This document shows, in pieces, positions 1 through 34,137 of a stretch of 64,000 bases of DNA. Source of the stretch: Trypanosoma brucei (Eukaryota); NCBI GenBank assembly GCA_000002445.1, contig CP000071.1:2304001-2368000 (forward strand). Direction: 5' to 3'. The notes under the pieces were generated by a model, which had not been told where the DNA came from, did no database searches, and saw nothing but the letters and a program-made list of their open reading frames with translations. Numbering within the stretch: position 1 is the stretch's first letter; each line of letters starts with the position of its first letter. A program made the position numbers and the translations under genes.

Positions 1-3000
1 GACTGGGTTTTATGTACCTGAAGGGCGTTTCTTTCGGCGATAAGGAGTATAAGCTGACACTTAAGGTAATGTCGATTATGGGCCGTAAATTGTGCGGTGT
101 TTTCGAATTAGACAGCTCTACTGATGGAAGGGCTTCTGATGATGATTTTGAGGCTGCATGGAAAAGGTTTGCTCCCACGATGCCACAAGGTGTAATTGTG
201 TTTGGTTCGCCAATTGAGGATACGAAGAGGTTCCTGTTGAAGTTTTTGGGGAGCAATGAATTGAGAGGTGCTTATATATTAATTCCTTCTATGCTTCAAT
301 ATGTTATTATAAACAGTTGGATGAAGGAGTTGGCCGTAAAGAATTTTGTGCCTGAGAGAGTGATACTGACGGGTCCGAGTCCACTTGCAAATGATAATGA
401 ATACATAGCAGTACGGAAGTTTCAGACTGATATGGAGAAGTACCTGGAAACAAATGGGAAACTTAATGGTCACAATTATGAAAAGGGTCACTTTTATGAT
501 CACAGTACTGACGGAGAATTGATGGTGCACGGATGGATTGTGGGCGAGGTCTTGTGGCGTACACTGGGAAGTCGTGAATCGCTGAAAAACCGTACAACTT
601 ACATGAACTCTCTGTACAACCAGCGTCGGTATGTTATCGATGATCTTGTGATTGGTGATTTTGGTGGTGAATGTGAGGGGAAGGCTGGTCAGCGTGGAGC
701 TGCATGCAAATGTAATCAAGGTGGAAATGTTGTTTACATGAAGAGGATGGGAACTGATCGGAATCTACATCCTGTGAAGGAGGGTGTAGTGACTCTCGCT
801 TCATCACGCTGCTATACGAATCTCTTACAACTGTATGCCCCATTGAATGGTATAATGTTTCGACTAGAAGACAATCCATTGGCGCAGCGGATTACAGAGG
901 AATATCGCGATGGCGCCTCCCTCGTTGTTGGAAAGGGCCAATTGGGTCAAGGTGATCGCTTCTTTTTGCATGAACTGAATTCGACATCGAGTGCGACAAA
1001 GCACAACATGTTAGAGGAGGTTAAAGAGCGTGTTGTGACGGCTGTGTTCGGTGTTGTGGATGATGCGCTACTGTCGATGACAGATATGACATTTATTGAT
1101 CCCATTCCTCTCAGTCCCAGGTTGAAACACCCCGGAAGGAATGCGTTGCATTTGTCTCCAACAATTGAGCAGCAGATTTTTGTAATGGTGGAGCGTGTTG
1201 TGGTTCCGAATTCCTGGGGGAGTGTGCATGCCATTGTTCGCAGTAGTGATGCACGTGGAATAAAATCTGTTCTTCGAAAGACTTTTTGGGCACTTGGTGG
1301 GTCGCTGGGTGCTTTCGACGAAGTTACCGACGGTGAAAGTGTGAAGAGTTTGTTGCCGCATAGCGGCTTCGTTCTCGTTATTGGTCTGACTGAAGCTGAT
1401 ATTACTGCAATTGCTGAGCATCTTGACAATCACAGGGAAGTGCGTGTATTTGCGTTATTCTTCGATGTGGCACTGCTGTACAGTGAGTTTGTGAAGGTAT
1501 TCAAAAAGCATCCGCAAGCTGCCGAGCGGTTACTATTCGCAACAAGCCTACCACACTGGGCAGACAACAATACGACATCCGAGACGGTTCAGGAATTTCA
1601 CAGGGACGTGGGGAATGAGAGTAAATGGACTCCACTGGCGCTACTTGGGTATGCGACTGCACGTGCAATGGAAAGTGTTGTGTTGCAAACGGGGCGTGTG
1701 AACTCAGAAGAGCTTATCAACACTATATTCAGTCAGTCTGTAATTGTAGCGGATGACATGTGGTATGGACCCTTTGAGGACAGTTGTTCCAATAGCCGCT
1801 GGTCATCAGCGAAAGACTGCATTGTGAATTACGGTGCGACACATATTTCCGTGTGGTCCATGGCTCGTGTGTTGAATCCTTCCGTACCTCCTGTTAGTGG
1901 AGTAGCAACACCATCAATACGTTACTACAAAGATGGATTGAATATGACTGAGGAAGAATTTATTGGCACAATTGTGGGTACCATTTTGTGTTTGATAGCA
2001 CTTGTGCTGATAGTAATGCTTATGCGGAAATGTATGCGTGGGGATACTCGCGATAACGAGAACGCACCAAGAGAATTGACAGACCCCGTAACGCTAATAT
2101 TCACTGACATCGAGAGCAGCACTGCGCAGTGGGCAGCACACCCTGAGCTTATGCCTGATGCCGTTGCAACACATCACCGCCTAATTCGCTCATTGATTTC
2201 CAAGTATGGATGCTATGAAGTGAAGACTGTTGGAGATTCTTTTATGATTGCATGCAAGAGCCCTTTCGCTGCTACGCAATTAGCGTGTGACATGCAACGA
2301 TGCTTTTTAGAACATGATTGGAAGACTGATGTGTTTGATACGTCTTATCGTGAGTTTGAGCGGCAGCGTGCGGAAGATGATGGGGATTATGTTCCACCCA
2401 CTGGCCATCTTGACCCTGATGTTTACAGTCGGTTGTGGAATGGACTGCGAGTGCGTGTTGGAATTCACACCGGGTTGTGTGATATTCGGCATGATGAAGT
2501 GACGAAAGGATATGACTTTTACGGTCGTACATCGAATATGGCAGCACGGACTGAGAGCATTGCTAATGGGGGGCAGGTGCTGTTGACACGTCCGACATAC
2601 CTTTCATTGAGTACTTCGGAGCGTGAGCAATTAAATGTGACTGCATTGGGTGATGTGCCATTGCGTGGTGTACCCAAACCTGTGGAGATGTACCAATTGA
2701 ATGCGGTACCCGGAAGGACATTTACTACACTGCGACTTGACCATGAGGTTGCTGATGACGAAGATACGAGTGTTTCTTGCAGTGATGGGAGTTCCATTGG
2801 TGCAGTTCTCAGTGATGCCGCTCAACAGGTTGTTGCTTGCGTTGAAGCACTACTTGGTGCATTCCCTACTGCGCAGCATAAGAAATTACTTATGCCATTT
2901 TGTAACCGATGGGGAGTTTCGTTACCTTATAATGTTTCTGATACGTGGGATGCAACCACGTGCCGTAATGTTACTCGCCTGCTTGCCGCGAGGGTTGGTC

Positions 3001-3206
3001 GTGTTGTGGATTTTGGGACGAAGAATACTCATGACAGTGTACAATTCTCTGAAAGACGCTCGGGAACTTTTCCGTCCAGGTTAGCTGCCGCTGTTGATCT
3101 CGTAAGCATCCCTTCAACTTCTACCTGTATTCAATCCAGCTGCAGTATTATATATATGAATGTGCCAGATGATGATGATACCAGCAAATATTCCCCTAAG
3201 CATTGA
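1..3206 (+). CDS. GRESAG4: Receptor-type adenylate cyclase (ESAG4/GRESAG4 family), copy 1. The 5' end lies outside the window and the stop is at 3204-3206. It has the ectodomain, a TM helix (FIGTIVGTILCLIALVLIVMLM) and a class III cyclase domain (LIFTDIESST...YEVKTVGDSFMIACKS...RVGIHTGL...GRTSNMAARTES).
   Basis: The ORF 12..3206 aligns colinearly with aa ~235-1267 of the full copies downstream. The frame is open from position 1. The cyclase catalytic motifs are intact. The tail variant ...SGTFPSRLAAAVDLVSIPSTSTCIQSSCSIIYMNVPDDDDTSKYSPKH is specific to this copy. Confidence 0.9.
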   Translation, partial: LGFMYLKGVSFGDKEYKLTLKVMSIMGRKLCGVFELDSSTDGRASDDDFEAAWKRFAPTMPQGVIVFGSPIEDTKRFLLKFLGSNELRGAYILIPSMLQYVIINSWMKELAVKNFVPERVILTGPSPLANDNEYIAVRKFQTDMEKYLETNGKLNGHNYEKGHFYDHSTDGELMVHGWIVGEVLWRTLGSRESLKNRTTYMNSLYNQRRYVIDDLVIGDFGGECEGKAGQRGAACKCNQGGNVVYMKRMGTDRNLHPVKEGVVTLASSRCYTNLLQLYAPLNGIMFRLEDNPLAQRITEEYRDGASLVVGKGQLGQGDRFFLHELNSTSSATKHNMLEEVKERVVTAVFGVVDDALLSMTDMTFIDPIPLSPRLKHPGRNALHLSPTIEQQIFVMVERVVVPNSWGSVHAIVRSSDARGIKSVLRKTFWALGGSLGAFDEVTDGESVKSLLPHSGFVLVIGLTEADITAIAEHLDNHREVRVFALFFDVALLYSEFVKVFKKHPQAAERLLFATSLPHWADNNTTSETVQEFHRDVGNESKWTPLALLGYATARAMESVVLQTGRVNSEELINTIFSQSVIVADDMWYGPFEDSCSNSRWSSAKDCIVNYGATHISVWSMARVLNPSVPPVSGVATPSIRYYKDGLNMTEEEFIGTIVGTILCLIALVLIVMLMRKCMRGDTRDNENAPRELTDPVTLIFTDIESSTAQWAAHPELMPDAVATHHRLIRSLISKYGCYEVKTVGDSFMIACKSPFAATQLACDMQRCFLEHDWKTDVFDTSYREFERQRAEDDGDYVPPTGHLDPDVYSRLWNGLRVRVGIHTGLCDIRHDEVTKGYDFYGRTSNMAARTESIANGGQVLLTRPTYLSLSTSEREQLNVTALGDVPLRGVPKPVEMYQLNAVPGRTFTTLRLDHEVADDEDTSVSCSDGSSIGAVLSDAAQQVVACVEALLGAFPTAQHKKLLMPFCNRWGVSLPYNVSDTWDATTCRNVTRLLAARVGRVVDFGTKNTHDSVQFSERRSGTFPSRLAAAVDLVSIPSTSTCIQSSCSIIYMNVPDDDDTSKYSPKH

Positions 3207-3967
3207 AATATGTGTCCATTATTGCCAGAATAATTGGATAAGGTTCAATGAAAGATCTGTGCATGTTTCTTGTTCGATATTGGATGTTTTCGATAATATT
3301 CTTTTTAGGTTATATTTTCCACTTCTATGTATACACGGTATCCTCCTCACATGTTGGGTGCTTTCCATATTCGTGTGTTCCGCTTAGCTAGTGATTAAAG
3401 CACTTATTGAAGCAAACCCACTTTTCGTTTGTTGTTATAAAGTGGGGGATGTACTTATTTTCTCCATACTCTCACTGTGTGAAGCGTTATTTTTCTTGTT
3501 TCCCACTTCCGGTGAGCGGGTGTCAGGCAAAATGCACTGACCTCCTATATTAATGAAAATCGATGCATTCCCGTGCTGGACAGATAAGCCATCGTATTAT
3601 TAACTTCTAATGTTGCTGTTGGTACAACATATCAGTGTTGTTCACTTTGCTTTCCTTTACTATTATGTTGAAATGGTTTATTGTTTTTTTCTTTTTGTGT
3701 GCATATATCTGTATATGTGTTTCGATATACCGTCACCACTCTACCACGTTGATGGATTGGGGAATGGCTACTGATTGATTAATGCATGGTTTTTTGTCAC
3801 TTTAATAACAACATTGTATTCCATGATGGCTTTCAGCAACTGACCCTTGTGTACAATTTCCTGTTTATTTCCCTCTACTGACACAAATCTTTTTTACTAA
3901 TATCTTTTCCTTCTTTTATCACTTTCCAGGACTTGACAAGCCAAATATGTGAGGCTGGCTATTGCAT
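3207..3967. repeat. Intergenic 3'-flank element A, variant A1. It is repeated again at 4465..5225.
   Basis: It is near-identical to 4465..5225 (same strings, e.g. gtgggggatgtacttattttctccatactctcactgtgtgaagcg...ccggtgagcgggtgtcagg). Its 3' ~450 bp is shared with all other inter-cyclase spacers. It ends in a polypyrimidine tract followed by ...ctttccag. Confidence 0.75.
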
Positions 3968-4464
3968 TTGGAAGGACATTTGCTACACTGCGACTTAACC
4001 ATGAGGTTGCTGATGACGAAGATACGAGTGTTTCTTGCAGTGATGGGAGTTCCATTGGTGCAGTTCTCAGTGATGCCGCTCATCAGGCCGTTGCTTTTAT
4101 TGAAGCACTACTTGGTGCATTCCCTACTGCGCAGCATAAGAAATTACTTATGCCATTTTGTAACCGATGGGGAGTTTCGGCGCCTTATAATGTTTCTGAT
4201 ACGTGGGATGCAACCACGTGCCGTAATGTTACTCGCCTGCTTGCCGCGAGGGTTGGTCGTGTTGTGGATTTTGGGACGAAGAATACTCATGACAGTGTAC
4301 AATCCTTTGATAGACGCTCGGGAACTTTTCCGTCCAGGTTAGCTGCCGCTGTTGATCTCGTAAGCATCCCTTCAACTTCTACCTGTATTCAATCCAGCTG
4401 CAGTATTATATATATGAATGTGCCAGATGATGATGATACCAGCAAATATTCCCCTAAGCATTGA
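3968..4464 (+). pseudogene. Orphan cyclase 3'-tail remnant (F/T hybrid). The 5' part is F-type (LNHEVADDED...AAHQAVAFIEALL) and the 3' part is identical in type to the copy-1 tail, ending ...IIYMNVPDDDDTSKYSPKH*.
   Basis: ORF 3949..4464 (GTG-initiated in the track) encodes only the last ~170 aa of the cyclase. It is preceded by spacer rather than by the cyclase body. Its downstream flank duplicates the copy-1 flank. Confidence 0.75.
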
Positions 4465-5640: not shown

Positions 5641-8600
5641 ATGGCTTCCTTCATGCGTCTTGTTACTCCACTTGGCGCTGCAGTGGCTTGCAGTCATCTC
5701 CTCATGGTTGTGTTACCGCTGCTGTTACTTATTCCTGGTTTATGTGCTGATAAAGACTGTAACAGTAGCAGTGTAACGGTGAGGGTGTATAATTTGTTGT
5801 ACAGCTCTAAGATATCAAGTAAAATCTATGAACCCGTCATTGCTGGTTTCAATGCCTCGCTACATGCGCATAATGATGATTTGCCGGCAAATGTGTGCAT
5901 AGAGGTCGAACATGTTCATGCCAGAAGCGATGAGGATTACGTCTCATATTTAAAGGATAAAATTGATGGAGATGCTGCTGTACATAATAAGAGTGAACTG
6001 CCCATTGTGCTGGGACCTGTTGGTGATGTGACTACTCTCCATCTCACCAGGGAACTTGAGAAGTTTGAAATAGTGGCCTTTTCTCCCTTTACTGGATCTT
6101 CGGATGTGCGTGTGTGGAAAAAGAATCTGTACTTCCTTACGGCATCGCCTGTTGCAGAGGTGCTTGCACTAATTCGTTACGCTGTGAGTCAATTGAGGTT
6201 TCAGCGACTGGGTTTTATGTACCTGAAGGGTGTGTTTTATGGCGATAAGGAGTATAAGCTGACACTTAAGGTAATGTCGATTATGGGCCGTAAATTGTGC
6301 GGTGTTTTCGAATTAGACAGCTCTACTGATGGAAGGGCTTCTGATGATGATTTTGAGGCTGCATGGAAAAGGTTTGCTCCCACGATGCCACAAGGTGTAA
6401 TTGTGTTTGGTTCGCCAATTGAGGATACGAAGAGGTTCCTGATGAAGTTTTTAGGGAGCAATGAATTGAGAGGTGCTTATATATTAATTCCTTCCATGCT
6501 TCAATATGTTATCAAAAACAGTTGGGTGAAGGAGTTGGCCGTAAAGAATTTTGTGCCTGAGAGAGTGATACTGACGGGTCCGAGTCCACTTGCAAATGAT
6601 AATGAATACATAGCGGTACGGAAGTTTCAGCCTGTTATGGAGAAGTACCTGGAAAAAAATGGGAAACTTAATGGTCACAATTATGAAAAGGGTCACTTTT
6701 ACCAGCACAGTACTGACGGAGAATTGATGCTGCACGGATGGATCACAGGCGAGGTCTTGTGGCGTACACTGGGAAGTCGTGAATTACTGAAAAACCGTAC
6801 AACTTACATGAACTCTCTGTACAACCAGCGTCGGTATGTTATCGATGATCTTGTGATTGGTGATTTTGGTGGTGAATGTGAGGGGAAGGCTGGTCAGCGT
6901 GGAGCTGCATGCAAATGTAATCAAGGTGGAAATGTTGTTTACATGAAGAGGATGGGAACTGATCGGAATCTACATCCTGTGAAGGAGGGTGTAGTGACTC
7001 TCGCTTCATCACGCTGCTATACGAATCTCTTACAACTGTATGCCCCATTGAATGGTATAATGTTTCGACTAGAAGACAATCCATTGGCGCAGCGGATTAC
7101 AGAGGAATATCGCGATGGCGCCTCCCCCGTTGTTGGAAAGGGCCAATTGGGTCAAGGTGATCGCTTATTTTTGCATGAACTGAATTCGACATCGAGTGCG
7201 ACAAAGCACAACATGTTAGAGGAGGTTAAAGAGCGTGTTGTGACGGCCGTGTTCGGTGTTGTGGATGACGCGCTACTGTCGATGACAGATATGACATTTA
7301 TTGATCCCATTCCTCTCAGTCCCAGGTTGAAACACCCCGGAAGGAATGTGTTGCATTTGTCTCCAACAATTGAACAGCAGATTTTTGTAATGGTGGAGCG
7401 TGTTGTGGTTCCGAATTCCTGGGGGAGTGTGCATGCCATTGTTCGCAGTAGTGATGCACGTGGAATAAAATCTGTTCTTCGAAAGACTTTTTGGGCACTT
7501 GGTGGGTCGCTGGGTGCTTTCGACGAAGTTACCGACAGTGAAAGTGTGAAGAGTTTGTTACCGAATAGCGGCTTCGTTCTCGTTATTGGTCTAACTGAAG
7601 CTGATATTACTGCAATTGCTGAGCATCTTGACAATCACAGGGAAGTGCGTGTATTTGTGTTATTCTTCGATGTGGCACTGCTGTACAGTGAGTTTGTGAA
7701 GGTATTCAAAAAGCATCCGCAAGCTGCCGAGCGGTTACTATTCGCAACAAGCCTACCACACTGGGCAGACAACAATACGACATCCGAGACGGTTCAGGAG
7801 TTTCACAGGGACGTGGGGAATGAGAGTAAATGGACTCCACTGGCGCTGCTTGGGTATGCGACTGCACGTGCAATGGAAAGTGTTGTGTTGCAAATGGGGC
7901 GTGTGAACTCAGAAGAGCTTATCAACACTATATTCAGTCAGTCTGTAATTGTAGCGGATGACATGTGGTATGGACCCTTTGAGGACAGTTGTTCCAATAG
8001 CCGCTGGTCATCAGCGAAAGACTGCATTGTGAATTACGGTGCGACACATATTTCCGTGTGGTCCATGGCTCGTGTGTTGAATCCTTCCGTACCTCCTGTT
8101 AGTGGAGTAGCAGCACCATCAATACGTTACTACAAAGATGGATTGAATATGACTGAGGAAGAATTTATTGGCACAATTGTGGGTACCATTTTGTGTTTGA
8201 TAGCACTTGTGCTGATAGTAATGCTTATGCGGAAATGTATGCGTGGGGATACTCGCGATAACGAGAACGCACCAAAAGAATTGACAGACCCCGTAACGCT
8301 AATATTCACTGACATCGAGAGCAGCACTGCGCAGTGGGCAGCACACCCTGAGCTTATGCCTGATGCCGTTGCAACACATCACCGCCTAATTCGCACATTG
8401 ATTTCCAAGTATGGATGCTATGAAGTGAAGACTGTTGGAGATTCTTTTATGATTGCATGCAAGAGCCCTTTCGCTGCTACGCAATTAGCGTGTGACCTGC
8501 AGCGGTGCTTTTTAGAACATGATTGGAAGACTGATGTGTTTGATACGTCTTATCGTGAGTTTGAGCGGCAGCGTGCGGAAGATGATGGGGATTATGTTCC

Positions 8601-9444
8601 ACCCACTGGCCATCTTGACCCTGATGTTTACAGTCGGTTGTGGAATGGACTGCGAGTGCGTGTTGGAATTCACACCGGGTTGTGTGATATTCGGCATGAT
8701 GAAGTGACGAAAGGATATGACTTTTACGGTCGTACATCGAATATGGCAGCACGGACTGAGAGCATTGCTAATGGCGGGCAGGTGCTGTTGACACGTTCGA
8801 CATACCTTTCATTGAGTACTTCGGAGCGTGAGCAATTAAATGTGACTGCATTGGGTGATGTGCCATTGCGTGGTGTACCCAAACCTGTGGAGATGTACCA
8901 ATTGAATGCGGTACCCGGAAGGACATTTACTACACTGCGACTTGACCATGAGGTTGCTGATGACGAAGATACGAGTGTTTCTTGCAGTGATGGGAGTTCC
9001 ATTGGTGCAGTTCTCAGTGATGCCGCTCATCAGGCCGTTGCTTTTATTGAAGCACTACTTGGTGCATTCCCTACTGCGCAGCATAAGAAATTACTTATGC
9101 CATTTTGTAACCGATGGGGAGTTTCGTTACCTTATAATGTTTCTGATACGTGGGATGCAACCACGTGCCGTAATGTTACTCGCCTGCTTGCCGCGAGGGT
9201 TGGTCGTGTTGTGGATTTTGGGACGAAGAATACTCATGACAGTGTACAATCCTTTGATAGACGCTCGGGAACTTTCCCACCTGGATTGGTTGCCTCTGTT
9301 CCTGAGGAGGGTAGTTTAGCTTCAACTTCTACCTGTATTCAATCCAGCTGCAGTGTTGTGTACATGATGAATGGGCCAGATGATGATGATACCAGCAAAT
9401 GTTCCCCTAAGCATTGCAATATGCGTCCGTTATTGCCAGAATAA
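5641..9444 (+). CDS. GRESAG4: Receptor-type adenylate cyclase, copy 2 (1267 aa). It has a signal peptide (MASFMRLVTPLGAAVACSHLLMVVLPLLLLIPGLCA), an ectodomain, a TM helix and a class III cyclase domain.
   Basis: The long ORF 5497..9444 (track start is TTG). The first in-frame ATG is at 5641, directly followed by a hydrophobic signal sequence. The catalytic motifs are complete. Confidence 0.9.
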   Translation: MASFMRLVTPLGAAVACSHLLMVVLPLLLLIPGLCADKDCNSSSVTVRVYNLLYSSKISSKIYEPVIAGFNASLHAHNDDLPANVCIEVEHVHARSDEDYVSYLKDKIDGDAAVHNKSELPIVLGPVGDVTTLHLTRELEKFEIVAFSPFTGSSDVRVWKKNLYFLTASPVAEVLALIRYAVSQLRFQRLGFMYLKGVFYGDKEYKLTLKVMSIMGRKLCGVFELDSSTDGRASDDDFEAAWKRFAPTMPQGVIVFGSPIEDTKRFLMKFLGSNELRGAYILIPSMLQYVIKNSWVKELAVKNFVPERVILTGPSPLANDNEYIAVRKFQPVMEKYLEKNGKLNGHNYEKGHFYQHSTDGELMLHGWITGEVLWRTLGSRELLKNRTTYMNSLYNQRRYVIDDLVIGDFGGECEGKAGQRGAACKCNQGGNVVYMKRMGTDRNLHPVKEGVVTLASSRCYTNLLQLYAPLNGIMFRLEDNPLAQRITEEYRDGASPVVGKGQLGQGDRLFLHELNSTSSATKHNMLEEVKERVVTAVFGVVDDALLSMTDMTFIDPIPLSPRLKHPGRNVLHLSPTIEQQIFVMVERVVVPNSWGSVHAIVRSSDARGIKSVLRKTFWALGGSLGAFDEVTDSESVKSLLPNSGFVLVIGLTEADITAIAEHLDNHREVRVFVLFFDVALLYSEFVKVFKKHPQAAERLLFATSLPHWADNNTTSETVQEFHRDVGNESKWTPLALLGYATARAMESVVLQMGRVNSEELINTIFSQSVIVADDMWYGPFEDSCSNSRWSSAKDCIVNYGATHISVWSMARVLNPSVPPVSGVAAPSIRYYKDGLNMTEEEFIGTIVGTILCLIALVLIVMLMRKCMRGDTRDNENAPKELTDPVTLIFTDIESSTAQWAAHPELMPDAVATHHRLIRTLISKYGCYEVKTVGDSFMIACKSPFAATQLACDLQRCFLEHDWKTDVFDTSYREFERQRAEDDGDYVPPTGHLDPDVYSRLWNGLRVRVGIHTGLCDIRHDEVTKGYDFYGRTSNMAARTESIANGGQVLLTRSTYLSLSTSEREQLNVTALGDVPLRGVPKPVEMYQLNAVPGRTFTTLRLDHEVADDEDTSVSCSDGSSIGAVLSDAAHQAVAFIEALLGAFPTAQHKKLLMPFCNRWGVSLPYNVSDTWDATTCRNVTRLLAARVGRVVDFGTKNTHDSVQSFDRRSGTFPPGLVASVPEEGSLASTSTCIQSSCSVVYMMNGPDDDDTSKCSPKHCNMRPLLPE

Positions 9445-10200
9445 TTGGATAAGGTTCAATACATGATCTGTGCATGTTTCTTTTTCGATATTAGATTTTT
9501 TCGATAATATTCTTTTTAGGTTGTCTCTATTACTATGTGTGCTCAGCATCCTCCTCACATGTTGGGTGGTTTTATTATCCCTCTGATGAAAGAAATTTCT
9601 TGAAATGCTGTTGGCAATCTTTTATTTTAATACGTTTAGCGGTAAGCGCTTTTCGTTTTTCCTTTATTATGCGATACCGGAGCATGCATATCACTGCTGA
9701 TGCTCCGGCCCATAGTTTATGATATGTGTTCTTTTCCACCCCCGGTGAGTGGGTGTCAGGCAAAATGCACTGATATCCTCTTTTGGTGGGAATTTATAAG
9801 TTACCATGCTGGACAGTTGAGCCACCGTATTATTAACTTCTAATGTTGCTGTTGGTACAACATATCAGTGTCGTTCACTTTGATTTCCTTTACTATTATG
9901 TTGAAATGGTTTATTGTTTTTTTCTTTTTGTGTGCATATATCTGTATATGTGTTTCGATATACCGTCACCACTCTACCACGTTGATGGATTGGGGAATGG
10001 CTACTGATTGATTAATGCATGGTTTTTTGTCACTTTAATAACAACATTGTATTCCATGATGGCTTTCAGCAACTGACCCTTGTGTACAATTTCCTGTTTA
10101 TTTCCCTCTACTGACACAAATCTTTTTTACTAATATCTTTTCCTTCTTTTATCACTTTCCAGGACTTGACAAGCCAAATATGTGAGACTGGCTATTGCAT
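9445..10200. repeat. Intergenic 3'-flank element A, variant A2.
   Basis: It shares the conserved 3' ~450 bp (ccggtgagtgggtgtcaggcaaaatgcactgatatcc...gttgctgttggtacaacatatcag...ctttccaggacttgacaagccaaatatgtgag) with the other spacers. Its 5' ~300 bp differs from A1 and from the 14414 spacer. Confidence 0.7.
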
Positions 10201-10466
10201 TCGGAAGGACATTTACTACACTGCGACTTAACCATGAGGTTGCTGATGACGAAGATACGAGTGTTTCTTGCAGTGATGGGAGTTCCATTGGTGCAGTTCT
10301 CAGTGATGCCGCTTATCAGGCCGTTGCTTTTATTGAAGCACTACTTGGTGCATTCCCTACTGCGCAGCGTAAGAAATTACTTATGCCATTTTGTAACCGA
10401 TGGGGAGTTTCGGCGCCTCGTAATGTTTCTGATACGTGGGATGCAACCACGTGCCGTAATGTTACA
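10201..10466 (+). pseudogene. F fragment (orphan cyclase-tail remnant) upstream of copy 3.
   Basis: ORF 10182..10481 has the same translation as 5207..5506 with 2 substitutions. Confidence 0.75.
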
Positions 10467-10481
10467 GTCACTTGTGTGTAA

Positions 10482-10615
10482 TTGAATTTCAACTGCACTC
10501 TCTTCTGCTCCCTTTCGTGCCCTTACTTTATTGTTGTCTATTATCATTATTATTATTATTCTCTCATTTCTCTCCTTTAAGACTTACGAATTCCTCAAGT
10601 CAAGTCACCAGTGTT
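10482..10615 (+). promoter_or_regulatory. Polypyrimidine/AG putative trans-splice acceptor region and 5' UTR of copy 3.
   Basis: It is homologous to 5507..5640. Confidence 0.5.
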
Positions 10616-18500: not shown

Positions 18501-19139
18501 GAGTTTGAGCGGCAGCGTGCGGAAGATGATGGGGATTATGTTCCACCCACTGGCCATCTTGACCCTGATGTTTACAGTCGGTTGTGGAATGGACTGCGAG
18601 TGCGTGTTGGAATCCACGCCGGGTTGTGTGATATTCGGCATGATGAAGTGACGAAAGGATATGACTTTTACGGTCGTACATCGAATATGGCAGCACGGAC
18701 TGAGAGCATTGCTAATGGCGGGCAGGTGCTGTTGACACGTTCGACATACCTTTCATTGAGTACTTCGGAGCGTGAGCAATTAAATGTGACTGCATTGGGT
18801 GATGTGCCATTGCGTGGTGTACCCAAACCTGTGGAGATGTACCAATTGAATGCGGTACCCGGAAGGACATTTACTACACTGCGACTTGACCATGAGGTTG
18901 CTGATGACGAAGATACGAGTGTTTCTTGCAGTGATGGGAGTTCCATTGGTGCAGTTCTCAGTGATGCCGCTCATCAGGTTGTTGCTTTTATTGAAGCACT
19001 ACTTGGTGCATTCCCCACTGCGCAGCGTAAGAAATTACTTATGCCATTTTGTAACCGATGGGGAGTTTCGGCACCTTATAATGTTTCTGATACGTGGGAT
19101 GCAACCACGTGCCATAATGTTACAGTCACTTGTGTGTAA
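15586..19139 (+). pseudogene. GRESAG4: Receptor-type adenylate cyclase copy 4, disrupted. A -1 frameshift lies in a homopolymer at ~16610-16616 (ggaaaaaagtggaaac, where the other copies read ggaaaaaaatgggaaac). The C-terminus is replaced by the F-type ending ...TTCHNVTVTCV*. The gene then runs directly into the next copy's splice region with no 3' flank.
   Basis: The ORF track splits the copy into 15442..16671 and 16668..19139 in different frames. The unit length here is 3688 bp, against ~4970 elsewhere. Confidence 0.8.
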
Positions 19140-24240: not shown

Positions 24241-27200
24241 ATGGCTTCCTTCATGCGTCTTGTTACTCCACTTGGCGCTGCAGTGGCTTGCAGTCATCTC
24301 CTCATGGTTGTGTTACCGCTGCTGTTACTTATTCCTGGTTTATGTGCTGATAAAGACTGTAACAGTAGCAGTGTAACGGTGAGGGTGTATAATTTGTTGT
24401 ACAGCTTTAAGATATCAAGTAAAATCTATGAACCCGTCATTGCTGGTTTCAATGCCTCGCTACATGCGCATAATGATGATTTGCCGGCAAATGTGTGCAT
24501 AGAGGTCGAACATGTTCATGCCAGAAGCGATGAGGATTACGTCTCATATTTAAAGAATAAAATTGATGGAGATGCTGCTGTACAAAATAAGAGTGAACTG
24601 CCCATTGTGCTGGGACCTTTTGGTGATGTGACTACTCTCCATCTCACCAGGGAACTTGAGAAGTTTGAAATAGTGGCCTTTTCTCCCTTTACTGGATCTT
24701 CGGATGTGCGTGTGTGGAAAAAGAACCTGTACTATCTTACGGCATCGCCTGTTGCACAGGTGCTTGCACTAATTCGTTATGCAGTGAGTCAATTGAGGTT
24801 TCAGCGACTGGGTTTTATGTACCTGAAGGGTGTGTTTTATGGCGATAAGGAGTATAAGCTGACACTTAAGGTAATGTCGATTATGGGCCGTAAATTGTGC
24901 GGTGTTTTCGAATTAGACAGCTCTACTGATGGAAGGGCTTCTGATGATGATTTTGAGGCTGCATGGAAAAGGTTTGCTCCCACGATGCCACAAGGTGTAA
25001 TTGTGTTTGGTTCGCCAATTGAGGATACGAAGAGGTTCCTGATGAAGTTTTTAGGGAGCAATGAATTGAGAGGTGCTTATATATTAATTCCTTCCATGCT
25101 TCAATATGTTATCAAAAACAGTTGGGTGAAGGAGTTGGCCGTAAAGAATTTTGTGCCTGAGAGAGTGATACTGACGGGTCCGAGTCCACTTGCAAATGAT
25201 AATGAATACATAGCAGTACGGAAGTTTCAGACTGATATGGAGAAGTACCTGGAAACAAATGGGAAACTTAATGGTCACAATTATGAAAAGGGTCACTTTT
25301 ACCAGCACAGTACTGACGGAGAGTTGATGGTGCACGGATGGATCACAGGCGAGGTCTTGTGGCGTACACTGGGAAGTCGTGAATTACTGTGCAACCGTAC
25401 AGCTTACATGAACTCTCTGTACAACCAGCGTCGGTATGTTATCGATGATCTTGTGATTGGTGATTTTGGTGGTGAATGTGAGGGGAAGGCTGGTCAGCGT
25501 GGAGCTGCATGCAAATGTAATCAAGGTGGAAATGTTGTTTACATGAAGAGGATGGGAACTGATCGGAATCTACATCCTGTGAAGGAGGGTGTAGTGACTC
25601 TCGCTTCATCACGCTGCTATACGAATCTCTTACAACTGTATGCCCCATTGAATGGTATAATGTTTCGACTGGAAGACAATCCATTGGCGCAGCGGATTAC
25701 AGAGGAATATCGCGATGGCGCCTCCCCCGTTGTTGGAAAGGGCCAATTGGGTCAAGGTGATCGCTTCTTTTTGCATGAACTGAATTCGACATCGAGTGCG
25801 ACAAAGCACAACATGTTAGAGGAGGTTAAAGAGCGTGTTGTGACGGCCGTGTTCGGTGTTGTGGATGACGCGCTACTGTCGATGACAGATATGACATTTA
25901 TTGATCCCATTCCTCTCAGTCCCAGGTTGAAACACCCCGGAAGGAATGTGTTGCATTTGTCTCCAACAATTGAGCAGCAGATTTTTGTAATGGTGGAGCG
26001 TGTTGTGGTTCCGAATTCCTGGGGGAGTGTGCATGCCATTGTTCGCAGTAGTGATGCACGTGGAATAAAATCTGTTCTTCGAAAGACTTTTTGGGCACTT
26101 GGTGGGTCGCTGGGTGCTTTCGACGAAGTTACCGACGGTGAAAGTGTGAAGAGTTTGTTACCGCATAGCGGTTTCGTTCTCGTTATTGGTCTAACTGAAG
26201 CTGATATTACTGCAATTGCTGAGCATCTTGACAATCACAGGGAAGTGCGTGTATTTGTGTTATTCTTCGATGTGGCACTGCTGTACAGTGAGTTTGTGAA
26301 GGTATTCAAAAAGCATCCGCAAGCTGCCGAGCGGTTACTATTCGCAACAAGCCTACCACACTGGGCAGACAACAATACGACATCCGAGACGGTTCAGGAA
26401 TTTCACAGGGACGTGGGGAATGAGAGTAAATGGACTCCACTGGCGCTACTTGGGTACGCGACTGCACGTGCAATGGAAAGTGTTGTGTTGCAAATGGGGC
26501 GTGTGAACTCAGAAGAGCTTATCAACACTATATTCAGTCAGTCTGTAATTGTAGCGGATGACATGTGGTATGGACCCTTTGAGGACAGTTGTTCCAATAG
26601 CCGCTGGTCATCAGCGAAAGACTGCATTGTGAATTACGGTGCGACACATATTTCCGTGTGGTCCATGGCTCGTGTGTTGAATCCTTCCGTACCTCCTGTT
26701 AGTGGAGTAGCAACACCATCAATACGTTACTACAAAGATGGATTGAATATGACTGAGGAAGAATTTATTGGCACAATTGTGGGTACCATTTTGTGTTTGA
26801 TAGCACTTGTGCTGATAGTAATGCTTATGCGGAAATGTATGCGTGGGGATACTCGCGATAACGAGAACGCACCAAAAGAATTGACAGACCCCGTAACGCT
26901 AATATTCACTGACATCGAGAGCAGCACTGCGCAGTGGGCAGCACACCCTGAGCTTATGCCTGATGCCGTTGCAACACATCACCGCCTAATTCGCACATTG
27001 ATTTCCAAGTATGGATGCTATGAAGTGAAGACTGTTGGAGATTCTTTTATGATTGCATGCAAGAGCCCTTTCGCTGCTGCGCAATTAGCGTGTGACCTGC
27101 AGCGGTGCTTTTTAGAACATGATTGGAAGACTGATGTGTTTGATACGTCTTATCGTGAGTTTGAGCGGCAGCGTGCGGAAGATGATGGGGATTATGTTCC

Positions 27201-28044
27201 ACCCACTGGCCATCTTGACCCTGATGTTTACAGTCGGTTGTGGAATGGACTGCGAGTGCGTGTTGGAATCCACACCGGGTTGTGTGATATTCGGCATGAT
27301 GAAGTGACGAAAGGATATGACTTTTACGGTCGTACATCGAATATGGCAGCACGGACTGAGAGCATTGCTAATGGCGGGCAGGTGCTGTTGACACGTTCGA
27401 CATACCTTTCATTGAGTACTTCGGAGCGTGAGCAATTAAATGTGACTGCATTGGGTGATGTGCCATTGCGTGGTGTACCCAAACCTGTGGAGATGTACCA
27501 ATTGAATGCGGTACCCGGAAGGACATTTACTACACTGCGACTTGACCATGAGGTTGCTGATGACGAAGATACGAGTGTTTCTTGCAGTGATGGGAGTTCC
27601 ATTGGTGCAGTTCTCAGTGATGCCGCTCATCAGGTTGTTGCTTTTATTGAAGCACTACTTGGTGCATTCCCTACTGCGCAGCGTAAGAAATTACTTATGC
27701 CATTTTGTACCCGATGGGGAGTTTCGTTACCTTATAATGTTTCTGATACGTGGGATGCAACCACGTGCCGTAATGTCACTCGCCTGCTTGCCGCGAGGGT
27801 TGGTCGTGTTGTGGATTTTGGGACGAAGAATACTCATGACAGTGTACAATCCTTTGATAGACGCTCGGGAACTTTCCCACCTGGATTGGTTGCCTCTGTT
27901 CCTGAGGAGTGTAGTTTAGCTTCAACTTCCTCCTGTATTCAATCCAGCTGCAGTGTTGTGTACATGATGAATGGGTCAGATGATGATGATACCAGCAAAT
28001 ATTCCCCTAAGCATTGTAATATGTGTCCGTTATTGCCAGAATAA
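24241..28044 (+). CDS. GRESAG4: Receptor-type adenylate cyclase, copy 6 (1267 aa). The N-terminal patch is of the alpha type.
   Basis: ORF 24097..28044, with the first ATG at 24241. Confidence 0.9.
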   Translation: MASFMRLVTPLGAAVACSHLLMVVLPLLLLIPGLCADKDCNSSSVTVRVYNLLYSFKISSKIYEPVIAGFNASLHAHNDDLPANVCIEVEHVHARSDEDYVSYLKNKIDGDAAVQNKSELPIVLGPFGDVTTLHLTRELEKFEIVAFSPFTGSSDVRVWKKNLYYLTASPVAQVLALIRYAVSQLRFQRLGFMYLKGVFYGDKEYKLTLKVMSIMGRKLCGVFELDSSTDGRASDDDFEAAWKRFAPTMPQGVIVFGSPIEDTKRFLMKFLGSNELRGAYILIPSMLQYVIKNSWVKELAVKNFVPERVILTGPSPLANDNEYIAVRKFQTDMEKYLETNGKLNGHNYEKGHFYQHSTDGELMVHGWITGEVLWRTLGSRELLCNRTAYMNSLYNQRRYVIDDLVIGDFGGECEGKAGQRGAACKCNQGGNVVYMKRMGTDRNLHPVKEGVVTLASSRCYTNLLQLYAPLNGIMFRLEDNPLAQRITEEYRDGASPVVGKGQLGQGDRFFLHELNSTSSATKHNMLEEVKERVVTAVFGVVDDALLSMTDMTFIDPIPLSPRLKHPGRNVLHLSPTIEQQIFVMVERVVVPNSWGSVHAIVRSSDARGIKSVLRKTFWALGGSLGAFDEVTDGESVKSLLPHSGFVLVIGLTEADITAIAEHLDNHREVRVFVLFFDVALLYSEFVKVFKKHPQAAERLLFATSLPHWADNNTTSETVQEFHRDVGNESKWTPLALLGYATARAMESVVLQMGRVNSEELINTIFSQSVIVADDMWYGPFEDSCSNSRWSSAKDCIVNYGATHISVWSMARVLNPSVPPVSGVATPSIRYYKDGLNMTEEEFIGTIVGTILCLIALVLIVMLMRKCMRGDTRDNENAPKELTDPVTLIFTDIESSTAQWAAHPELMPDAVATHHRLIRTLISKYGCYEVKTVGDSFMIACKSPFAAAQLACDLQRCFLEHDWKTDVFDTSYREFERQRAEDDGDYVPPTGHLDPDVYSRLWNGLRVRVGIHTGLCDIRHDEVTKGYDFYGRTSNMAARTESIANGGQVLLTRSTYLSLSTSEREQLNVTALGDVPLRGVPKPVEMYQLNAVPGRTFTTLRLDHEVADDEDTSVSCSDGSSIGAVLSDAAHQVVAFIEALLGAFPTAQRKKLLMPFCTRWGVSLPYNVSDTWDATTCRNVTRLLAARVGRVVDFGTKNTHDSVQSFDRRSGTFPPGLVASVPEECSLASTSSCIQSSCSVVYMMNGSDDDDTSKYSPKHCNMCPLLPE

Positions 28045-29201: not shown

Positions 29202-32200
29202 ATGGCTTCCTTCATGCGTCTTGTTACTCCACTTGGCGCTGCAGTGGCTTGCAGTCATCTCCTCATGGTTGTGTTACCGCTGCTGTTACTTATTCCTGGT
29301 TTATGTGCTGATAAAGACTGTAACAGCAGTGGTAAAGTGTCAGTGAAAGTGCACAGTTTGTTGTACAGCTCTAAGATATCAAGTAAAATCTATGAACCCG
29401 TCATTGCTGGTTTCAATGCCTCGCTACATGCGCATAATGATGATTTACCGGCAAATGTGTGCACAAAGGTTGAGCTCGTGCACGTTGTGAGTGGTGGGAA
29501 TCATATGAATACTATTGAGACGATGATTGGGGAGGGTGAAGAAAATAGTAATGAACTGCCCATTGTGCTGGGACCTTTTGGTGATGAGACTACTCTCCAT
29601 CTCACCTCGAAACTTGAGAAGTTAAAGGTAGTGGCCTTTTCTCCCTTTACTGGATCTTCGGATGTGCGTGTGTGGAAAAAGAATCTGTACTTCCTTACGG
29701 CATCGCCTGTTGCAGAGGTGCTTGCACTAATTCGTTATGCTGTGAGTCAATTGAGGCTTCAGCGACTGGGTTTTATGTACCTGAAGGGTGTGTTTTATGG
29801 CGATAAGGAGTACGAGCTGACACTTAAGGTAATGTCGATTATGGGCCGTAAATTGTGCGGTGTTTTCGAATTAGACAGCTCTACTGATAGAAGGGCTTCT
29901 GATGATGATTTTGAGGCTGCATGGAAAAGGTTTGCTCCCACGATGCCACAAGGTGTAATTGTGTTTGGTTCGCCAATTGAGGATACGAAGAGGTTCCTGA
30001 ATAGGTTATTGGGGAGCAATGAATTGAGAGGTGCTTATATATTAATTCCTTCCATGCTTCAATATGTTATCAAAAACAGTTGGCTGGATGATCTGCAATT
30101 ATTTAATTTGAATTTCTCGAAAGTGATAGTTGCGGGTCTGACTCCACTTGCAAATGATAATGAATACATAGCGGTACAGAAGTTTCAGACTGATATGGGG
30201 AAGTACCTGGGAAATAATGGAAAACTTAATGGTCACAATTATGAAAAGGGTCACTTCTACCAGCACAGTACTGACGGAGAATTGATGCTGCACGGATGGA
30301 TTGTGGGCGAGGTCTTGTGGCGTACACTGGGAAGTCGTGAATTACTGTGCAACCGTACAACTTACATGAACTCTCTGTACAACCAGCGTCGGTATGTTAT
30401 CGATGATCTTGTGATTGGTGATTTTGGTGGTGAATGTGAGGGGAAGGCTGGTCAGCGTGGAGCTGCATGCAAATGTAATCAAGGTGGAAATGTTGTTTAC
30501 ATGAAGAGGATGGGAACTGATCGGAATCTACATCCTGTGAAGGAGGGTGTAGTGACTCTCGCTTCATCACGCTGCTATACGAATCTCTTACAACTGTATG
30601 CCCCATTGAATGGTATAATGTTTCGACTAGAAGACAATCCATTGGCGCAGCGGATTACAGAGGAATATCGCGATGGCGCCTCCCTCGTTGTTGGAAAGGG
30701 CCAATTGGGTCAAGGTGATCGCTTCTTTTTGCATGAACTGAATTCGACATCGAGTGCGACAAAGCACAACATGTTAGAGGAGGTTAAAGAGCGTGTTGTG
30801 ACGGCTGTGTTCGGTGTTGTGGATGATGCGCTACTGTCGATGACAGATATGACATTTATTGATCCCATTCCTCTCAGTCCCAGGTTGAAACACCCCGGAA
30901 GGAATGCGTTGCATTTGTCTCCAACAATTGAGCAGCAGATTTTTGTTATAGTTAAAAACTTTGTTGTTAAAAATTCTTCAAGAAGAGTGCGTGCCATTGT
31001 TCGCGGTGGTGATGCACGTGGAATAAAATCTGTGCTACGAAGGACACTTTGGGTTTTTGGAAAGTTTTTGAGGGCAGTTGACACTATTAATGATGGTGAA
31101 AGTGTGAGGGGGATGTTGCATCGCAGTCGTGATTGTTTCGTTTTCGGTCTAACTGAAGCTGATATTACTGCAATTGCTGAGCATCTTGACAATCACAGGA
31201 AAGTGCGTGTATTTGTGTCGTTCTTCGATGTGGCACTGCTGTACAGTGAGTTTGTGAAGGTATTCAAAAAGCATCCGCAAGCTGCCGAGCGGTTACTATT
31301 CGCAACAAGCCTACCACACTGGGCAGACAACAATACGACATCCGAGACGGTTCAGGAATTTCACAGGGACGTGGGGATTCAGAGTAAATGGACTCCACTG
31401 GCGCTGCTTGGGTATGCGACTGCACGTGCAATGGAAAGTGTTGTGTCGCGAATGGGGCGTGTGAACTCAGAAGAGCTTATCAACGCCATATTCAGTCAGT
31501 CTGTAATTGTAGCGGATGACATGTGGTATGGACCCTTTGAGGACAGTTGCGCTAGCGGGTCCTCAGTGAAGGATTGCGCTGTGAATTACGGTGCGACACA
31601 TATTTCCGTGTGGTCCATGGCTCGTGTGTTGAATCCTTCCGTACCTCCTGTTAGCCAACCCGAAAGTCCATCGATACATTATTATAGTAATGGATTGAAT
31701 ATGACTGAGGAAGAATTTATTGGCACAATTGTGGGTACCATTTTGTGTTTGATAGCACTTGTGCTGATAGTAACAGTTATACGGAGGTTAATGCGTCTTA
31801 ACGCGCGGGATAACGAGAACGCACCAAAAGAATTGACAGACCCCGTAACGCTAATATTCACTGACATCGAGAGCAGCACTGCGCAGTGGGCAGCACACCC
31901 TGAGCTTATGCCTGATGCCGTTGCAACACATCACCGCCTAATTCGCACATTGATTTCCAAGTATGGATGCTATGAAGTGAAGACTGTTGGAGATTCTTTT
32001 ATGATTGCATGCAAGAGCCCTTTCGCTGCTACGCAATTAGCATGTGACCTGCAACGATGCTTTTTAGAACATGATTGGAAGACTGATGTGTTTGATACGT
32101 CTTATCGTGAGTTTGAGCGGCAGCGTGCGGAAGATGATGGGGATTATGTTCCACCCACTGGCCATCTTGACCCTGATGTTTACAGTCGGTTGTGGAATGG

Positions 32201-32954
32201 ACTGCGAGTGCGTGTTGGAATCCACACCGGGTTGTGTGATATTCGGCATGATGAAGTGACGAAAGGATATGACTACTACGGTCGTACATCGAATATGGCA
32301 GCACGGACTGAGAGCATTGCTAATGGGGGGCAGGTGCTGTTCACACGTTCGACATACCTTTCATTGAGTACTTCGGAGCGTGAGCAATTAAATGTGACTG
32401 CATTGGGTGATGTGCCACTGCGTGGTGTGCCGGAACCTGTGGAGATGTACCAATTGAATGCGGTACCCGGAAGGACATTCGCGGCACTGCGACTTGACTG
32501 TCAAATTATTGATGAAGATGATACGAGTGGTGCTTGCAGTGAAGCAAGTTCTGTTGGGATTGGTCTTGGTGATGCCGCTCAACAGGTTGCTGCTTGCATT
32601 GAAGCACTACTTGGTGCATTCCCCACTGCGCAGCGTAAGAAATTACTTATGCCATTTTGTAACCGATGGGGAGTTTCGGCGCCTCGCAATGTTTCTGATA
32701 CGTGGGATGATACCACGTGCCATGCTGTTACTCGCCTGCTTGCCGCGAAGGTTGGTCGTGTTGTGGATTTTGGGACGCGGACTGGTATTGGTAGTTTAGG
32801 CGCTAGCATAAGACGTGGTTCCTTTATATCACCAATGGCGTCTCGTATTGATATTCGTGGTAGTTCTTTTGCTCCTAGTGATATTGATGTTGGTGTGAGA
32901 ACGGTTCATTTTATTGGTCTACCAGATGATGATGCTGGAAGGTGTTCTCATTAG
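29202..32954 (+). CDS. GRESAG4: Receptor-type adenylate cyclase, copy 7 (1250 aa). This is a divergent edge paralog with a distinct N-terminal patch, a replaced ectodomain segment, a replaced juxtamembrane segment and a unique C-terminal tail (...GTRTGIGSLGASIRRGSFISPMASRIDIRGSSFAPSDIDVGVRTVHFIGLPDDDAGRCSH*).
   Basis: ORF 29058..32954, with the first ATG at 29202. The cyclase catalytic core is conserved. The flank after 32954 starts like an A element for ~170 bp and then becomes unique sequence. Confidence 0.88.
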   Translation: MASFMRLVTPLGAAVACSHLLMVVLPLLLLIPGLCADKDCNSSGKVSVKVHSLLYSSKISSKIYEPVIAGFNASLHAHNDDLPANVCTKVELVHVVSGGNHMNTIETMIGEGEENSNELPIVLGPFGDETTLHLTSKLEKLKVVAFSPFTGSSDVRVWKKNLYFLTASPVAEVLALIRYAVSQLRLQRLGFMYLKGVFYGDKEYELTLKVMSIMGRKLCGVFELDSSTDRRASDDDFEAAWKRFAPTMPQGVIVFGSPIEDTKRFLNRLLGSNELRGAYILIPSMLQYVIKNSWLDDLQLFNLNFSKVIVAGLTPLANDNEYIAVQKFQTDMGKYLGNNGKLNGHNYEKGHFYQHSTDGELMLHGWIVGEVLWRTLGSRELLCNRTTYMNSLYNQRRYVIDDLVIGDFGGECEGKAGQRGAACKCNQGGNVVYMKRMGTDRNLHPVKEGVVTLASSRCYTNLLQLYAPLNGIMFRLEDNPLAQRITEEYRDGASLVVGKGQLGQGDRFFLHELNSTSSATKHNMLEEVKERVVTAVFGVVDDALLSMTDMTFIDPIPLSPRLKHPGRNALHLSPTIEQQIFVIVKNFVVKNSSRRVRAIVRGGDARGIKSVLRRTLWVFGKFLRAVDTINDGESVRGMLHRSRDCFVFGLTEADITAIAEHLDNHRKVRVFVSFFDVALLYSEFVKVFKKHPQAAERLLFATSLPHWADNNTTSETVQEFHRDVGIQSKWTPLALLGYATARAMESVVSRMGRVNSEELINAIFSQSVIVADDMWYGPFEDSCASGSSVKDCAVNYGATHISVWSMARVLNPSVPPVSQPESPSIHYYSNGLNMTEEEFIGTIVGTILCLIALVLIVTVIRRLMRLNARDNENAPKELTDPVTLIFTDIESSTAQWAAHPELMPDAVATHHRLIRTLISKYGCYEVKTVGDSFMIACKSPFAATQLACDLQRCFLEHDWKTDVFDTSYREFERQRAEDDGDYVPPTGHLDPDVYSRLWNGLRVRVGIHTGLCDIRHDEVTKGYDYYGRTSNMAARTESIANGGQVLFTRSTYLSLSTSEREQLNVTALGDVPLRGVPEPVEMYQLNAVPGRTFAALRLDCQIIDEDDTSGACSEASSVGIGLGDAAQQVAACIEALLGAFPTAQRKKLLMPFCNRWGVSAPRNVSDTWDDTTCHAVTRLLAAKVGRVVDFGTRTGIGSLGASIRRGSFISPMASRIDIRGSSFAPSDIDVGVRTVHFIGLPDDDAGRCSH

Positions 32955-34137
32955 CATTGAAATATGTGTCCATTATTGCCAGAATAATTGGATAAGGTTC
33001 AATACATGATCTGTGCATGTTTCTTTTTAGATTCATTGTTTTCGATAATATTCGTTTTAGGTTGCCTTTACTACTTCTATGTATACACAGCGTCCTTCTC
33101 ACATGTTGGATGCTCCATATATCTTTGGTTTGGAATAATGTTGCCTTGAGGGCTGTTTGGTGTTTGACGTATGTGGTTGTGTGTTGTCTTATTGTTGTTT
33201 CGTTTTTTGCGTTATTTGAGCTTTTTGAATACGTCTTGTGATCTTTTGTTTTCCCTCTTTTTTGTGTTATATTTTTCTTTATGTTCCTTTTTCATGATAT
33301 AGGCGATGTACCCAATATTTTAACTTGTTGTTTAATGCTTTACTGAAGACATGTAGTGCAGGTTTCTTACCGTTTGCTGCGGGTTTCCGTCACTGCAGGG
33401 TGGAGGTGTTTGCCTTGTTTAATGTGTTTATTTTTACTTAACTTTCTCCTTAAATTCGGTATTTTAAAAAACCTATGTATGAGTTGCCCTGGTACTGATA
33501 ACTTCTTTTCGCGTTGTACTTTCTTGTGTGATTAACGGTTTTTATTATTGTTTTCTGTGACATCTTGCCTGTTCTCTTTCTCTTTTATTTTACCGTTAGG
33601 TTCCTTAAGGCATATGATGGAGAGAGTTGTACGCTGTGCTCTTTCGGTTGGAACTGGTTGATTGAATGTTGATCGTATTTTTTTGAGTGGGCTTCGTTTT
33701 GCCACTGGAATGCGAACGATAGCCTTCTGGGTTTGTTACACCGGCTTCATTCGTATGCGTGCTGATGTCTAATTGTTTTTTTTTAAATTTGTTCTTACAA
33801 GTAGATGAGGTTGGTTCGTGTGGCTATTAATGATGGAATGTGTGTGTGTGTTACGGCGATTTGTCGTAATTGTGGTCGGTGGCGTATATGAACCTGTGGG
33901 GTTGCGTCAGCGGAGCGTCTGCCTCAGCGCGTGGCCCCATTGTGGCAGCAACAGCAAAAATTAATATAGTCACTGTTGTTACATCCATATATGTATTTAT
34001 GTATTGTGCTGTTGTAAGTGTGGAGACTAGCCATTTTTTTAGTTGATGTACCTTCTGGAGTAGTTGTTTAACCTATTTTTTAATTCTCATTTATTGTCTA
34101 GTTCTTGTTTTGTTTTGTTGCGTCATTAGAGTTTCCG

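Follow-up and report, generated by a model that had tools for sequence, protein, structure and literature searches.

GRESAG4 receptor-type adenylate cyclases form a large, parasite-specific family of trypanosome surface sensors, implicated in the dampening of host innate immunity and in behaviour in the tsetse fly (review PMC6027212; PMC7719234), and copy-to-copy differences therefore matter. Passages retrieved from earlier comparative papers describe the systems closest to the locus studied here. The chromosome 8 array of these genes in Trypanosoma brucei is described as one of the two members of a chromosome 4/8 duplicon (PMC2212663). For the array named 80a, which starts at Tb927.8.7860, a Ds of 0.0624, a Dn of 0.0361 and a significant topology test for concerted evolution were reported (Jackson 2007, PMC1855330), and the later T. 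b. gambiense genome paper counted 8 annotated copies for T. b. brucei as against 4 for T. b. gambiense, with p < 0.001 in the pairwise homoplasy index (PHI) test and 10 or 11 breakpoints as determined by a likelihood ratio test (LRT) or by genetic algorithm recombination detection (GARD), respectively (PMC2854126 Table 2, 2010). Here we analysed a stretch of 64,000 nucleotides (nt) of T. brucei DNA (contig CP000071.1, positions 2,304,001 to 2,368,000; referred to as the window), which carries a head-to-tail array of cyclase genes. With a probability of about 0.93, we assign this region to chromosome 8 of Trypanosoma brucei brucei TREU927, where it represents Tb927.8.7860-7940, a chromosome-internal tandem array of GRESAG4 genes.

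Identity and layout of the array

The copies in the window are numbered c1 to c7. In an exact-sequence look-up, the translations of c2, c5, c6 and c7 corresponded to XP_847615, XP_847617, XP_847618 and XP_847619 of TREU927, and the open reading frame (ORF) at 47748-50228, downstream of the array, to the vacuolar H+-pyrophosphatase VP1 (XP_847623). The translation of c1 was an exact match to residues 190-1256 of XP_847614 (P0009). According to the retrieved part of PMC2212663, VP1 is Tb927.8.7980 and the cyclase of the chromosome 4/8 duplicon pair is Tb927.8.7860; therefore, the window comes from chromosome 8 and extends from Tb927.8.7870 to past Tb927.8.7980. XP_847613 (P0004), identical to XP_847614 at 1243 of 1256 positions, must be a further copy (c0) that sits upstream of the window. 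The 5ʹ edge of the array, as had been proposed in an earlier annotation of this stretch (the original prediction), thus lies beyond the window, whose edge cuts c1. The array is already annotated and published, and the original prediction described it correctly apart from the integrity of the copies and the irregular spacing.

The copies and associated elements are listed below; F, preF and flank A are parts of the repeat unit, which is described in a later section. We infer the gene identifiers from the spacing of the protein accessions and gene IDs, and they are marked as putative.

Upstream, outside the window: c0, putative Tb927.8.7860
1..3206, forward strand: c1, the 3ʹ 3.2 kb of a GRESAG4 cyclase coding sequence, cut by the window edge; XP_847614; putative Tb927.8.7870
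3970..4464, forward strand: orphan relic, an intergenic F followed by a c1-type C-terminal tail and TGA, with no N-terminal body; putative Tb927.8.7880
5641..9444, forward strand: c2, intact, 1267 amino acids (aa); XP_847615; putative Tb927.8.7890
10616..14413, forward strand: c3, intact, 1265 aa; putative Tb927.8.7900
15586..19139, forward strand: c4, pseudogene, 3554 nt (not a multiple of three); putative Tb927.8.7910
19274..23068, forward strand: c5, intact, 1264 aa; XP_847617; putative Tb927.8.7920
24241..28044, forward strand: c6, intact, 1267 aa; XP_847618; putative Tb927.8.7930
29202..32954, forward strand: c7, intact, divergent last copy, 1250 aa; XP_847619; putative Tb927.8.7940
32955..33120, forward strand: last flank A and 3ʹ edge of the array, with no preF or F after it

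The ATG codons of c2 to c7, preceded in all six cases by an identical stretch of 30 nt, and the seven stop ends were found exactly where they had been predicted. All copies are arranged head-to-tail on one strand and the spacers are repeated too. A self-comparison of the window (self-BLAST), the check that accompanied the original prediction, gave diagonals at about 4.97 kb and its multiples. The long diagonals had offsets of 4975, 4967, 9947, 13633, 18600 and others, with 92-98% identity, and are not expected by chance within a 64-kb window. In the same comparison, the homology of the last copy's 3ʹ flank stopped at 33109-33120, in agreement with the array edge proposed at ~33.1 kb. Tandem Repeats Finder, with a longest period of 500, reported nothing in the window, and Rfam and tRNA searches, which covered the full window, gave no matches, the spacers containing no known structured RNA.

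The proposed period of ~4.97 kb holds for four of the six spacings, but not for the other two. The ATG-to-ATG distances were 4975, 4970, 3688, 4967 and 4961 bp, the shortest one separating c4 from c5, whereas c1 and c2 were offset by 6205 bp because 1258 bp are duplicated between them (2712-4232 = 3970-5490). This extra piece of the c1-c2 spacer comprises an F, a tail, a flank A and a preF, and the self-BLAST alignment showed 98.3% identity over 1521 nt.

Seven copies with seven stops are present as predicted; however, to speak of seven genes is an overstatement, because c4 is frameshifted and tail-less. A 1-bp deletion in c4 (GGG to GG at about 16607) leads to a shifted frame that stops at 16671, and the last ~250 nt of coding sequence are missing. 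Its coding sequence passes through a hybrid F (18861-19123) directly into the segment that precedes the ATG of c5 (u150, see below), without tail, flank A and preF. In the window, c2, c3, c5, c6 and c7 are intact, c1 is complete in the annotation, and the dead members are c4 and the orphan tail.

The tail of c1 is of the short type ending in ...SPKH (TGA). We also noticed that a change from TGC to TGA (at 3204-3206 and 4462-4464 in the window) is common to c1, c0 and the orphan tail, by which the protein ends nine residues early, after …SPKH; behind the shared TGA the former frame, NMCPLLPE followed by a stop, is still readable.

Predicted architecture of the encoded proteins

Pfam searches detected Peripla_BP_A-cyclase_1, Peripla_BP_A-cyclase and Guanylate_cyc in every copy tested, namely c1, c2 and c7 (E 1e-39 to 1e-141). 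The catalytic domain corresponded to PF00211 in all three (E about 1e-39 to 1e-40), and the periplasmic-binding-protein-like domains of the ectodomain to PF25495 (E 5e-56) and PF25493 (E 5.6e-141). Residues 874-1106 of c2 matched the GRESAG 4.1 structure 1FX2 with an E value of 8.5e-120. Together with the identity between the 5641..9444 translation and XP_847615, these domains and the structural match bear out the original assignment to the receptor-type adenylate cyclase family. The motifs FTDIESST, GDSFM and NMAART were identical in nearly all copies, with a T to A change after NMAAR in c5. The trypanosome enzymes work as dimers of the catalytic domain.

The hydropathy of c2 was examined with the Kyte-Doolittle scale (19-residue windows, score >1.8), which is a scan rather than a dedicated predictor. 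Apart from a marginal one at aa 671, hydrophobic windows began only at aa 7-20 and at aa 840-851, and the scan indicated an N-terminal signal sequence and one transmembrane helix linking the ectodomain to the catalytic domain. Each intact unit is thus predicted to encode a type I membrane protein, in which a signal peptide is followed by two periplasmic-binding-protein-like ectodomains, one transmembrane helix and a class III cyclase domain, and which closes with a C-terminal tail that varies among the copies. Isoforms may differ in ligand or location properties by virtue of this tail and of the variable N-terminal ectodomain. In an earlier study, the tagged product of Tb927.8.7920, which presumably corresponds to c5, was located at the flagellar tip of procyclic cells (PMC7719234).

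Anatomy of the repeat unit

We used the c2 to c3 interval as the model of the unit. The predicted order of F fragment, polypyrimidine tract with AG, coding sequence and flank A was recovered, and the following segments could be delimited:

5641-9444, forward strand: coding sequence, including the coding F
8917..9179, forward strand: coding F, 263 nt, codons 1093-1180, immediately C-terminal to the catalytic domain; delimited by motif search and alignment
9445..9572, forward strand: flank A, the first ~128 nt past the stop, kept after every copy, c7 too
9573..9728, forward strand: variable segment, ~155 nt, with two or three haplotypes among the units (alignment)
9729..10202, forward strand: preF, conserved, 474 nt, ending with a polypyrimidine tract and ...TTCCAG ~40 nt before the intergenic F
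10203..10465, forward strand: intergenic F, with the coding frame still open
10466..10615, forward strand: u150, 150 nt from the intergenic F to the ATG, with a polypyrimidine tract at 10498-10578 and the first AG at 10580

F is a 263-nt copy of coding region that occurs 13 times in the window, with sharp boundaries. Coding-context copies start at 2712, 8917, 13886, 22550, 27517 and 32469, and intergenic copies at 3970, 5228, 10203, 15173, 23828 and 28789, the coding frame being open in all six of the latter. The remaining F, at 18861 in c4, is a hybrid that carries the variants of coding copies in its 5ʹ part and those of intergenic copies in its 3ʹ part. Pairs of coding copies showed 10 differences on average, pairs of intergenic copies 7.7, and pairs across the two contexts a similar number, 12, and several multi-base variants or polymorphic blocks occurred in both.

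In trypanosomes, copies arranged head-to-tail on one strand lie inside a polycistronic unit and are co-transcribed. Trans-splicing at a polypyrimidine/AG site ahead of each ATG releases the individual mRNAs, and is coupled to polyadenylation of the preceding gene; consequently, gene dosage scales with copy number. In the model unit, the AG at 10580, 35 nt before the ATG, is the likely spliced-leader acceptor, which would give a 5ʹ untranslated region (UTR) of about 34 nt.

The same region is of interest for two annotated proteins. XP_847613 and a T. b. gambiense protein (P0007) are annotated with a 42-residue N-terminal extension (MLQFLLISPCCLQYCC...SSQVTSV) that is a translation of the polypyrimidine tract and the 5ʹ UTR (the window equivalent is 5515-5640), and which is probably due to a mis-called start. 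P0007 additionally has an internal 60-residue duplication beside a 100-N assembly gap.

A search for the origin of the intergenic-only sequence (the variable segment, preF and the first 56 nt of u150; ~690 nt, 9573-10202 and 10466-10521 and equivalents) revealed no detectable similarity to the array flanks, the rest of the window, coding sequence, the T. b. gambiense upstream region or the chromosome 4 array, and only T-rich low-complexity matches were obtained.

Origin of the irregular spacings

The unit consists of two modules joined by F: module A (3.69 kb), formed by u150 and the body of the coding sequence, and module B (1.26-1.29 kb), formed by the tail, flank A and preF. Both irregular spacings would be explained by unequal exchange between coding and intergenic F copies. 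In such an exchange of a coding F with an intergenic F, one product would lose a B module and the other would gain one; the loss would yield the tail-less c4 fused to c5, and the gain would yield the orphan tail relic between c1 and c2.

It is conceivable, although we give the idea only a small chance, that F is a maintained recombination joint by which cyclase bodies and C-terminal tails are swapped as separate cassettes in the chromosome 8 array. The open frame of the six intergenic F copies and the exchange of polymorphisms with the coding F would fit this idea, as would the presence of the F layout in T. b. gambiense and its lack in the paralogous array on chromosome 4. Tail-less enzymes like c4 and orphan tails like the one at 3970-4464 would then be by-products. 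The C-terminal tail has been reported to determine where in the flagellum a cyclase of this family is located, so that cassette exchange, if true, could re-target sensor domains.

Sequence variation and concerted evolution

The original prediction called the coding bodies near-identical and regarded this as a signature of concerted evolution. The first part applies to c1-c6, which are 96.0-98.8% identical at the nucleotide level, but not to c7, with 89-92%. The resulting within-array identity of 89-99% (nt) contrasts with at most 58% (aa) to the chromosome 4 paralogues; the best T. congolense and T. vivax matches, which may or may not be orthologues, reached 54% (aa) and 47% (aa), respectively. 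In a four-gamete/PHI-like analysis of c2-c7 with 91 informative biallelic sites, 2056 of 4095 site pairs failed the four-gamete test, the minimum number of recombination events (Rmin) was 21, and the PHI-like permutation gave p < 0.001. The nearest-neighbour copy switched between successive 200-nt windows, and in c7 blocks less than 1% divergent alternated with blocks 10-50% divergent. These mosaic and incompatible sites, in conjunction with the published test of the array, support the second part of the claim.

Amino-acid differences were concentrated in aa 37-160 and in the tail beyond F. The ratio of nonsynonymous (dN) to synonymous (dS) divergence reached about 0.9 for aa 37-160, compared with 0.24-0.31 for the catalytic domain; the overall means for the five intact full-length copies including c7, dN 0.054 and dS 0.090, were of the same order as the published values. 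According to the model that we favour, unequal crossing-over and gene conversion keep most of the body nearly identical, the reshuffling of alternative blocks creates mosaics, above all in the tail and in the membrane-distal part of the ectodomain (aa 37-160), and the end copies escape homogenisation.

We compared the copies with those of the orthologous T. b. gambiense array (FN554971.1, 2046039-2079666; loci L002 and L003), which has the matching preF, F and u150 layout between copies. Upstream of its first copy, homology begins only about 94 nt before the ATG, and no preF or F is found there. The end copies were related one-to-one: the 3ʹ half of the first T. b. gambiense copy (g1) was 98.5% identical to c1, and the last copy 97.6% identical to c7. 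The internal copy g2 was equidistant (97.4-97.5%) from c2, c5 and c6, and internal copies had no one-to-one partner.

A dispersed T. b. gambiense chromosome 8 cyclase (P0019; L001:10001-13804), located about 100 kb upstream of the array beside an amino acid transporter array, had an overall identity of 68% to c2. Its alignment with the array contains stretches of 97-99% nucleotide identity (nt 1501-2250 and 2701-3150) that lie between stretches of 45-60%, a pattern suggestive of ectopic gene conversion involving the array and this distant paralogue. As a source of the divergent blocks of c7, P0019 was rejected: in the block in which c7 departs most from c2 (nt 1801-1950), c7 was about 69% identical to both P0019 and c2.

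Alternative explanations

The copies share a protein family with the ESAG4 genes of telomeric variant surface glycoprotein (VSG) expression sites, and ESAG4 proteins are 47-48% identical to c2. However, that the array itself consists of such telomeric ESAG4 genes, rather than of chromosome-internal GRESAG4, has a very small probability: core genes follow it, among them VP1 at 47748-50228, which locates it outside a telomeric VSG expression site and in synteny with T. b. gambiense chromosome 8, where the same neighbours lie downstream of the array, and the window showed no further ESAG or VSG ORF. Somewhat less remote, yet still very improbable, is an origin of the similarity in very recent amplification only, with no continuing conversion or exchange and thus no concerted evolution. 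The internal copies do differ by only 1-4%, about as much as the subspecies differ from each other. Under recent amplification, however, one would not expect about half of the informative site pairs to be incompatible with an Rmin of 21, polymorphisms to be shared between coding and intergenic F, or the blocks of c7 to alternate between less than 1% and up to ~50% divergence, and in the retrieved part of PMC1855330 the topology test rejected independent divergence for the array.

Several points weigh against the identification of the region as an array of functional cyclases that evolves by such exchange. Cyclase function and the expression of the copies are here read from sequence alone, and the splice acceptor and poly(A) positions are likewise predictions. 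About 950 nt found only between units (the variable segment, preF, F and the first 56 nt of u150) match neither array flank. A single assembly is the source of both irregular junctions and of the c4 frameshift, all of them within a repeat family of 5 kb, and they could be assembly or sequencing errors; the T. b. gambiense array assembly, which is collapsed because of two 100-N gaps, cannot confirm the junctions for the same reason. If errors were indeed responsible, the array would be a regular one of eight intact 4.97-kb units, and the c4 truncation, the c4 frameshift and the extra 1258 bp would be assembly or base-calling artefacts, with a B module misplaced at F. The deletion and the duplication do concern one module and are similar in length (about 1.28 vs 1.26 kb), the collapse of the T. 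b. gambiense array at N gaps points in the same direction, and the copy numbers of these arrays are not reliably assembled, as stated in the retrieved part of PMC2854126. We nevertheless consider artefacts improbable. The tail in the extra module is of the c0/c1 type, including the premature TGA, and the module matches the 3ʹ end of c1 at 98.3% identity, so that a local duplication fits better than a module moved from c4. Moreover, F is only 263 nt long, which is shorter than a Sanger read. Two pseudogenes within the array are also implied by the numbering of accessions and IDs, and for Tb927.8.7880, which is one of the two, PMC3957582 gives the designation GRESAG4 pseudogene. Unequal exchange at F thus remains our preferred account of both junctions.

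Downstream neighbours of the array

The array is followed by a 1758-aa ORF at 34105-39381 (forward strand) without a Pfam match, which is 99.6% identical at the nucleotide level to its T. b. gambiense counterpart, far above the neighbouring array. By position it is probably Tb927.8.7950, described in the literature with a leucine-rich repeat, and the 313-aa ORF on the opposite strand inside it (37560-38501) is probably spurious. Two further forward-strand ORFs, of 447 aa (40964-42307) and 494 aa (43985-45469), had no Pfam domain. The spacers at about 42-44 kb and 46-48 kb are AT-rich, with a G+C fraction of 0.35-0.36 vs 0.43-0.53 elsewhere. Downstream of VP1, a single open frame of at least 4060 codons (51821-64000, forward strand) runs past the end of the window; it contains Thioredoxin_8 (aa 578-667) and DUF3638/DUF3645 (aa 3329-3809).

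Significance and comparison with known systems

Since the locus is part of the reference annotation and of two comparative papers, our analysis adds no new biology. What it adds is a precise map of the locus, the recognition of c4 as a pseudogene and of the orphan tail, and the gain and loss of modules at F, the exchange itself being our interpretation of the junctions. The F joint of 263 nt, the tail-less c4/c5 fusion and the orphan tail are not mentioned in the passages retrieved from PMC2212663, PMC2854126 and PMC1855330. The practical value lies in a map of intact vs dead copies and of the isoform differences (aa 37-160 and tail). The 263-nt internal repeat makes the array prone to gains and losses of 1.3 kb, which matters for read mapping, for the design of RNA interference and CRISPR experiments, and for copy-number calls.

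Among the known systems, the catalytic domains of GRESAG 4.1 and GRESAG 4.3 (PDB 1FX2 and 1FX4) resemble those of the array in belonging to the class III cyclase fold family, with 233 residues aligned ungapped at E about 1e-120; they are, however, other members of the family, and no solved structure found covers the ectodomain or the tail of the array proteins. The telomeric ESAG4 of VSG expression sites has the receptor-cyclase architecture in common with the array, and differs from it in the degree of identity given above and in its telomeric position, as opposed to the chromosome-core position of the array. The chromosome 4 GRESAG4 array (Tb927.4.4410-4470; retrieved part of PMC2212663) is alike in its head-to-tail cyclases, its syntenic duplicon position and its protein architecture, but its proteins are only 50-58% identical to c2. 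The spacers of the chromosome 4 array (T. b. gambiense locus L004, 558-1117 nt) contained no coding copy and no similarity to F, preF, u150 or flank A, and thus the F layout is specific to the chromosome 8 array. The possibility that this layout is older than the chromosome 4/8 duplication was tested and rejected, as it is not present in the chromosome 4 array. The published array 80a (PMC1855330 and PMC2854126) is the present locus itself, and agrees with it in organism, chromosome, exact proteins, a total of 8 copies when the upstream one is counted, and mosaic, concerted evolution.

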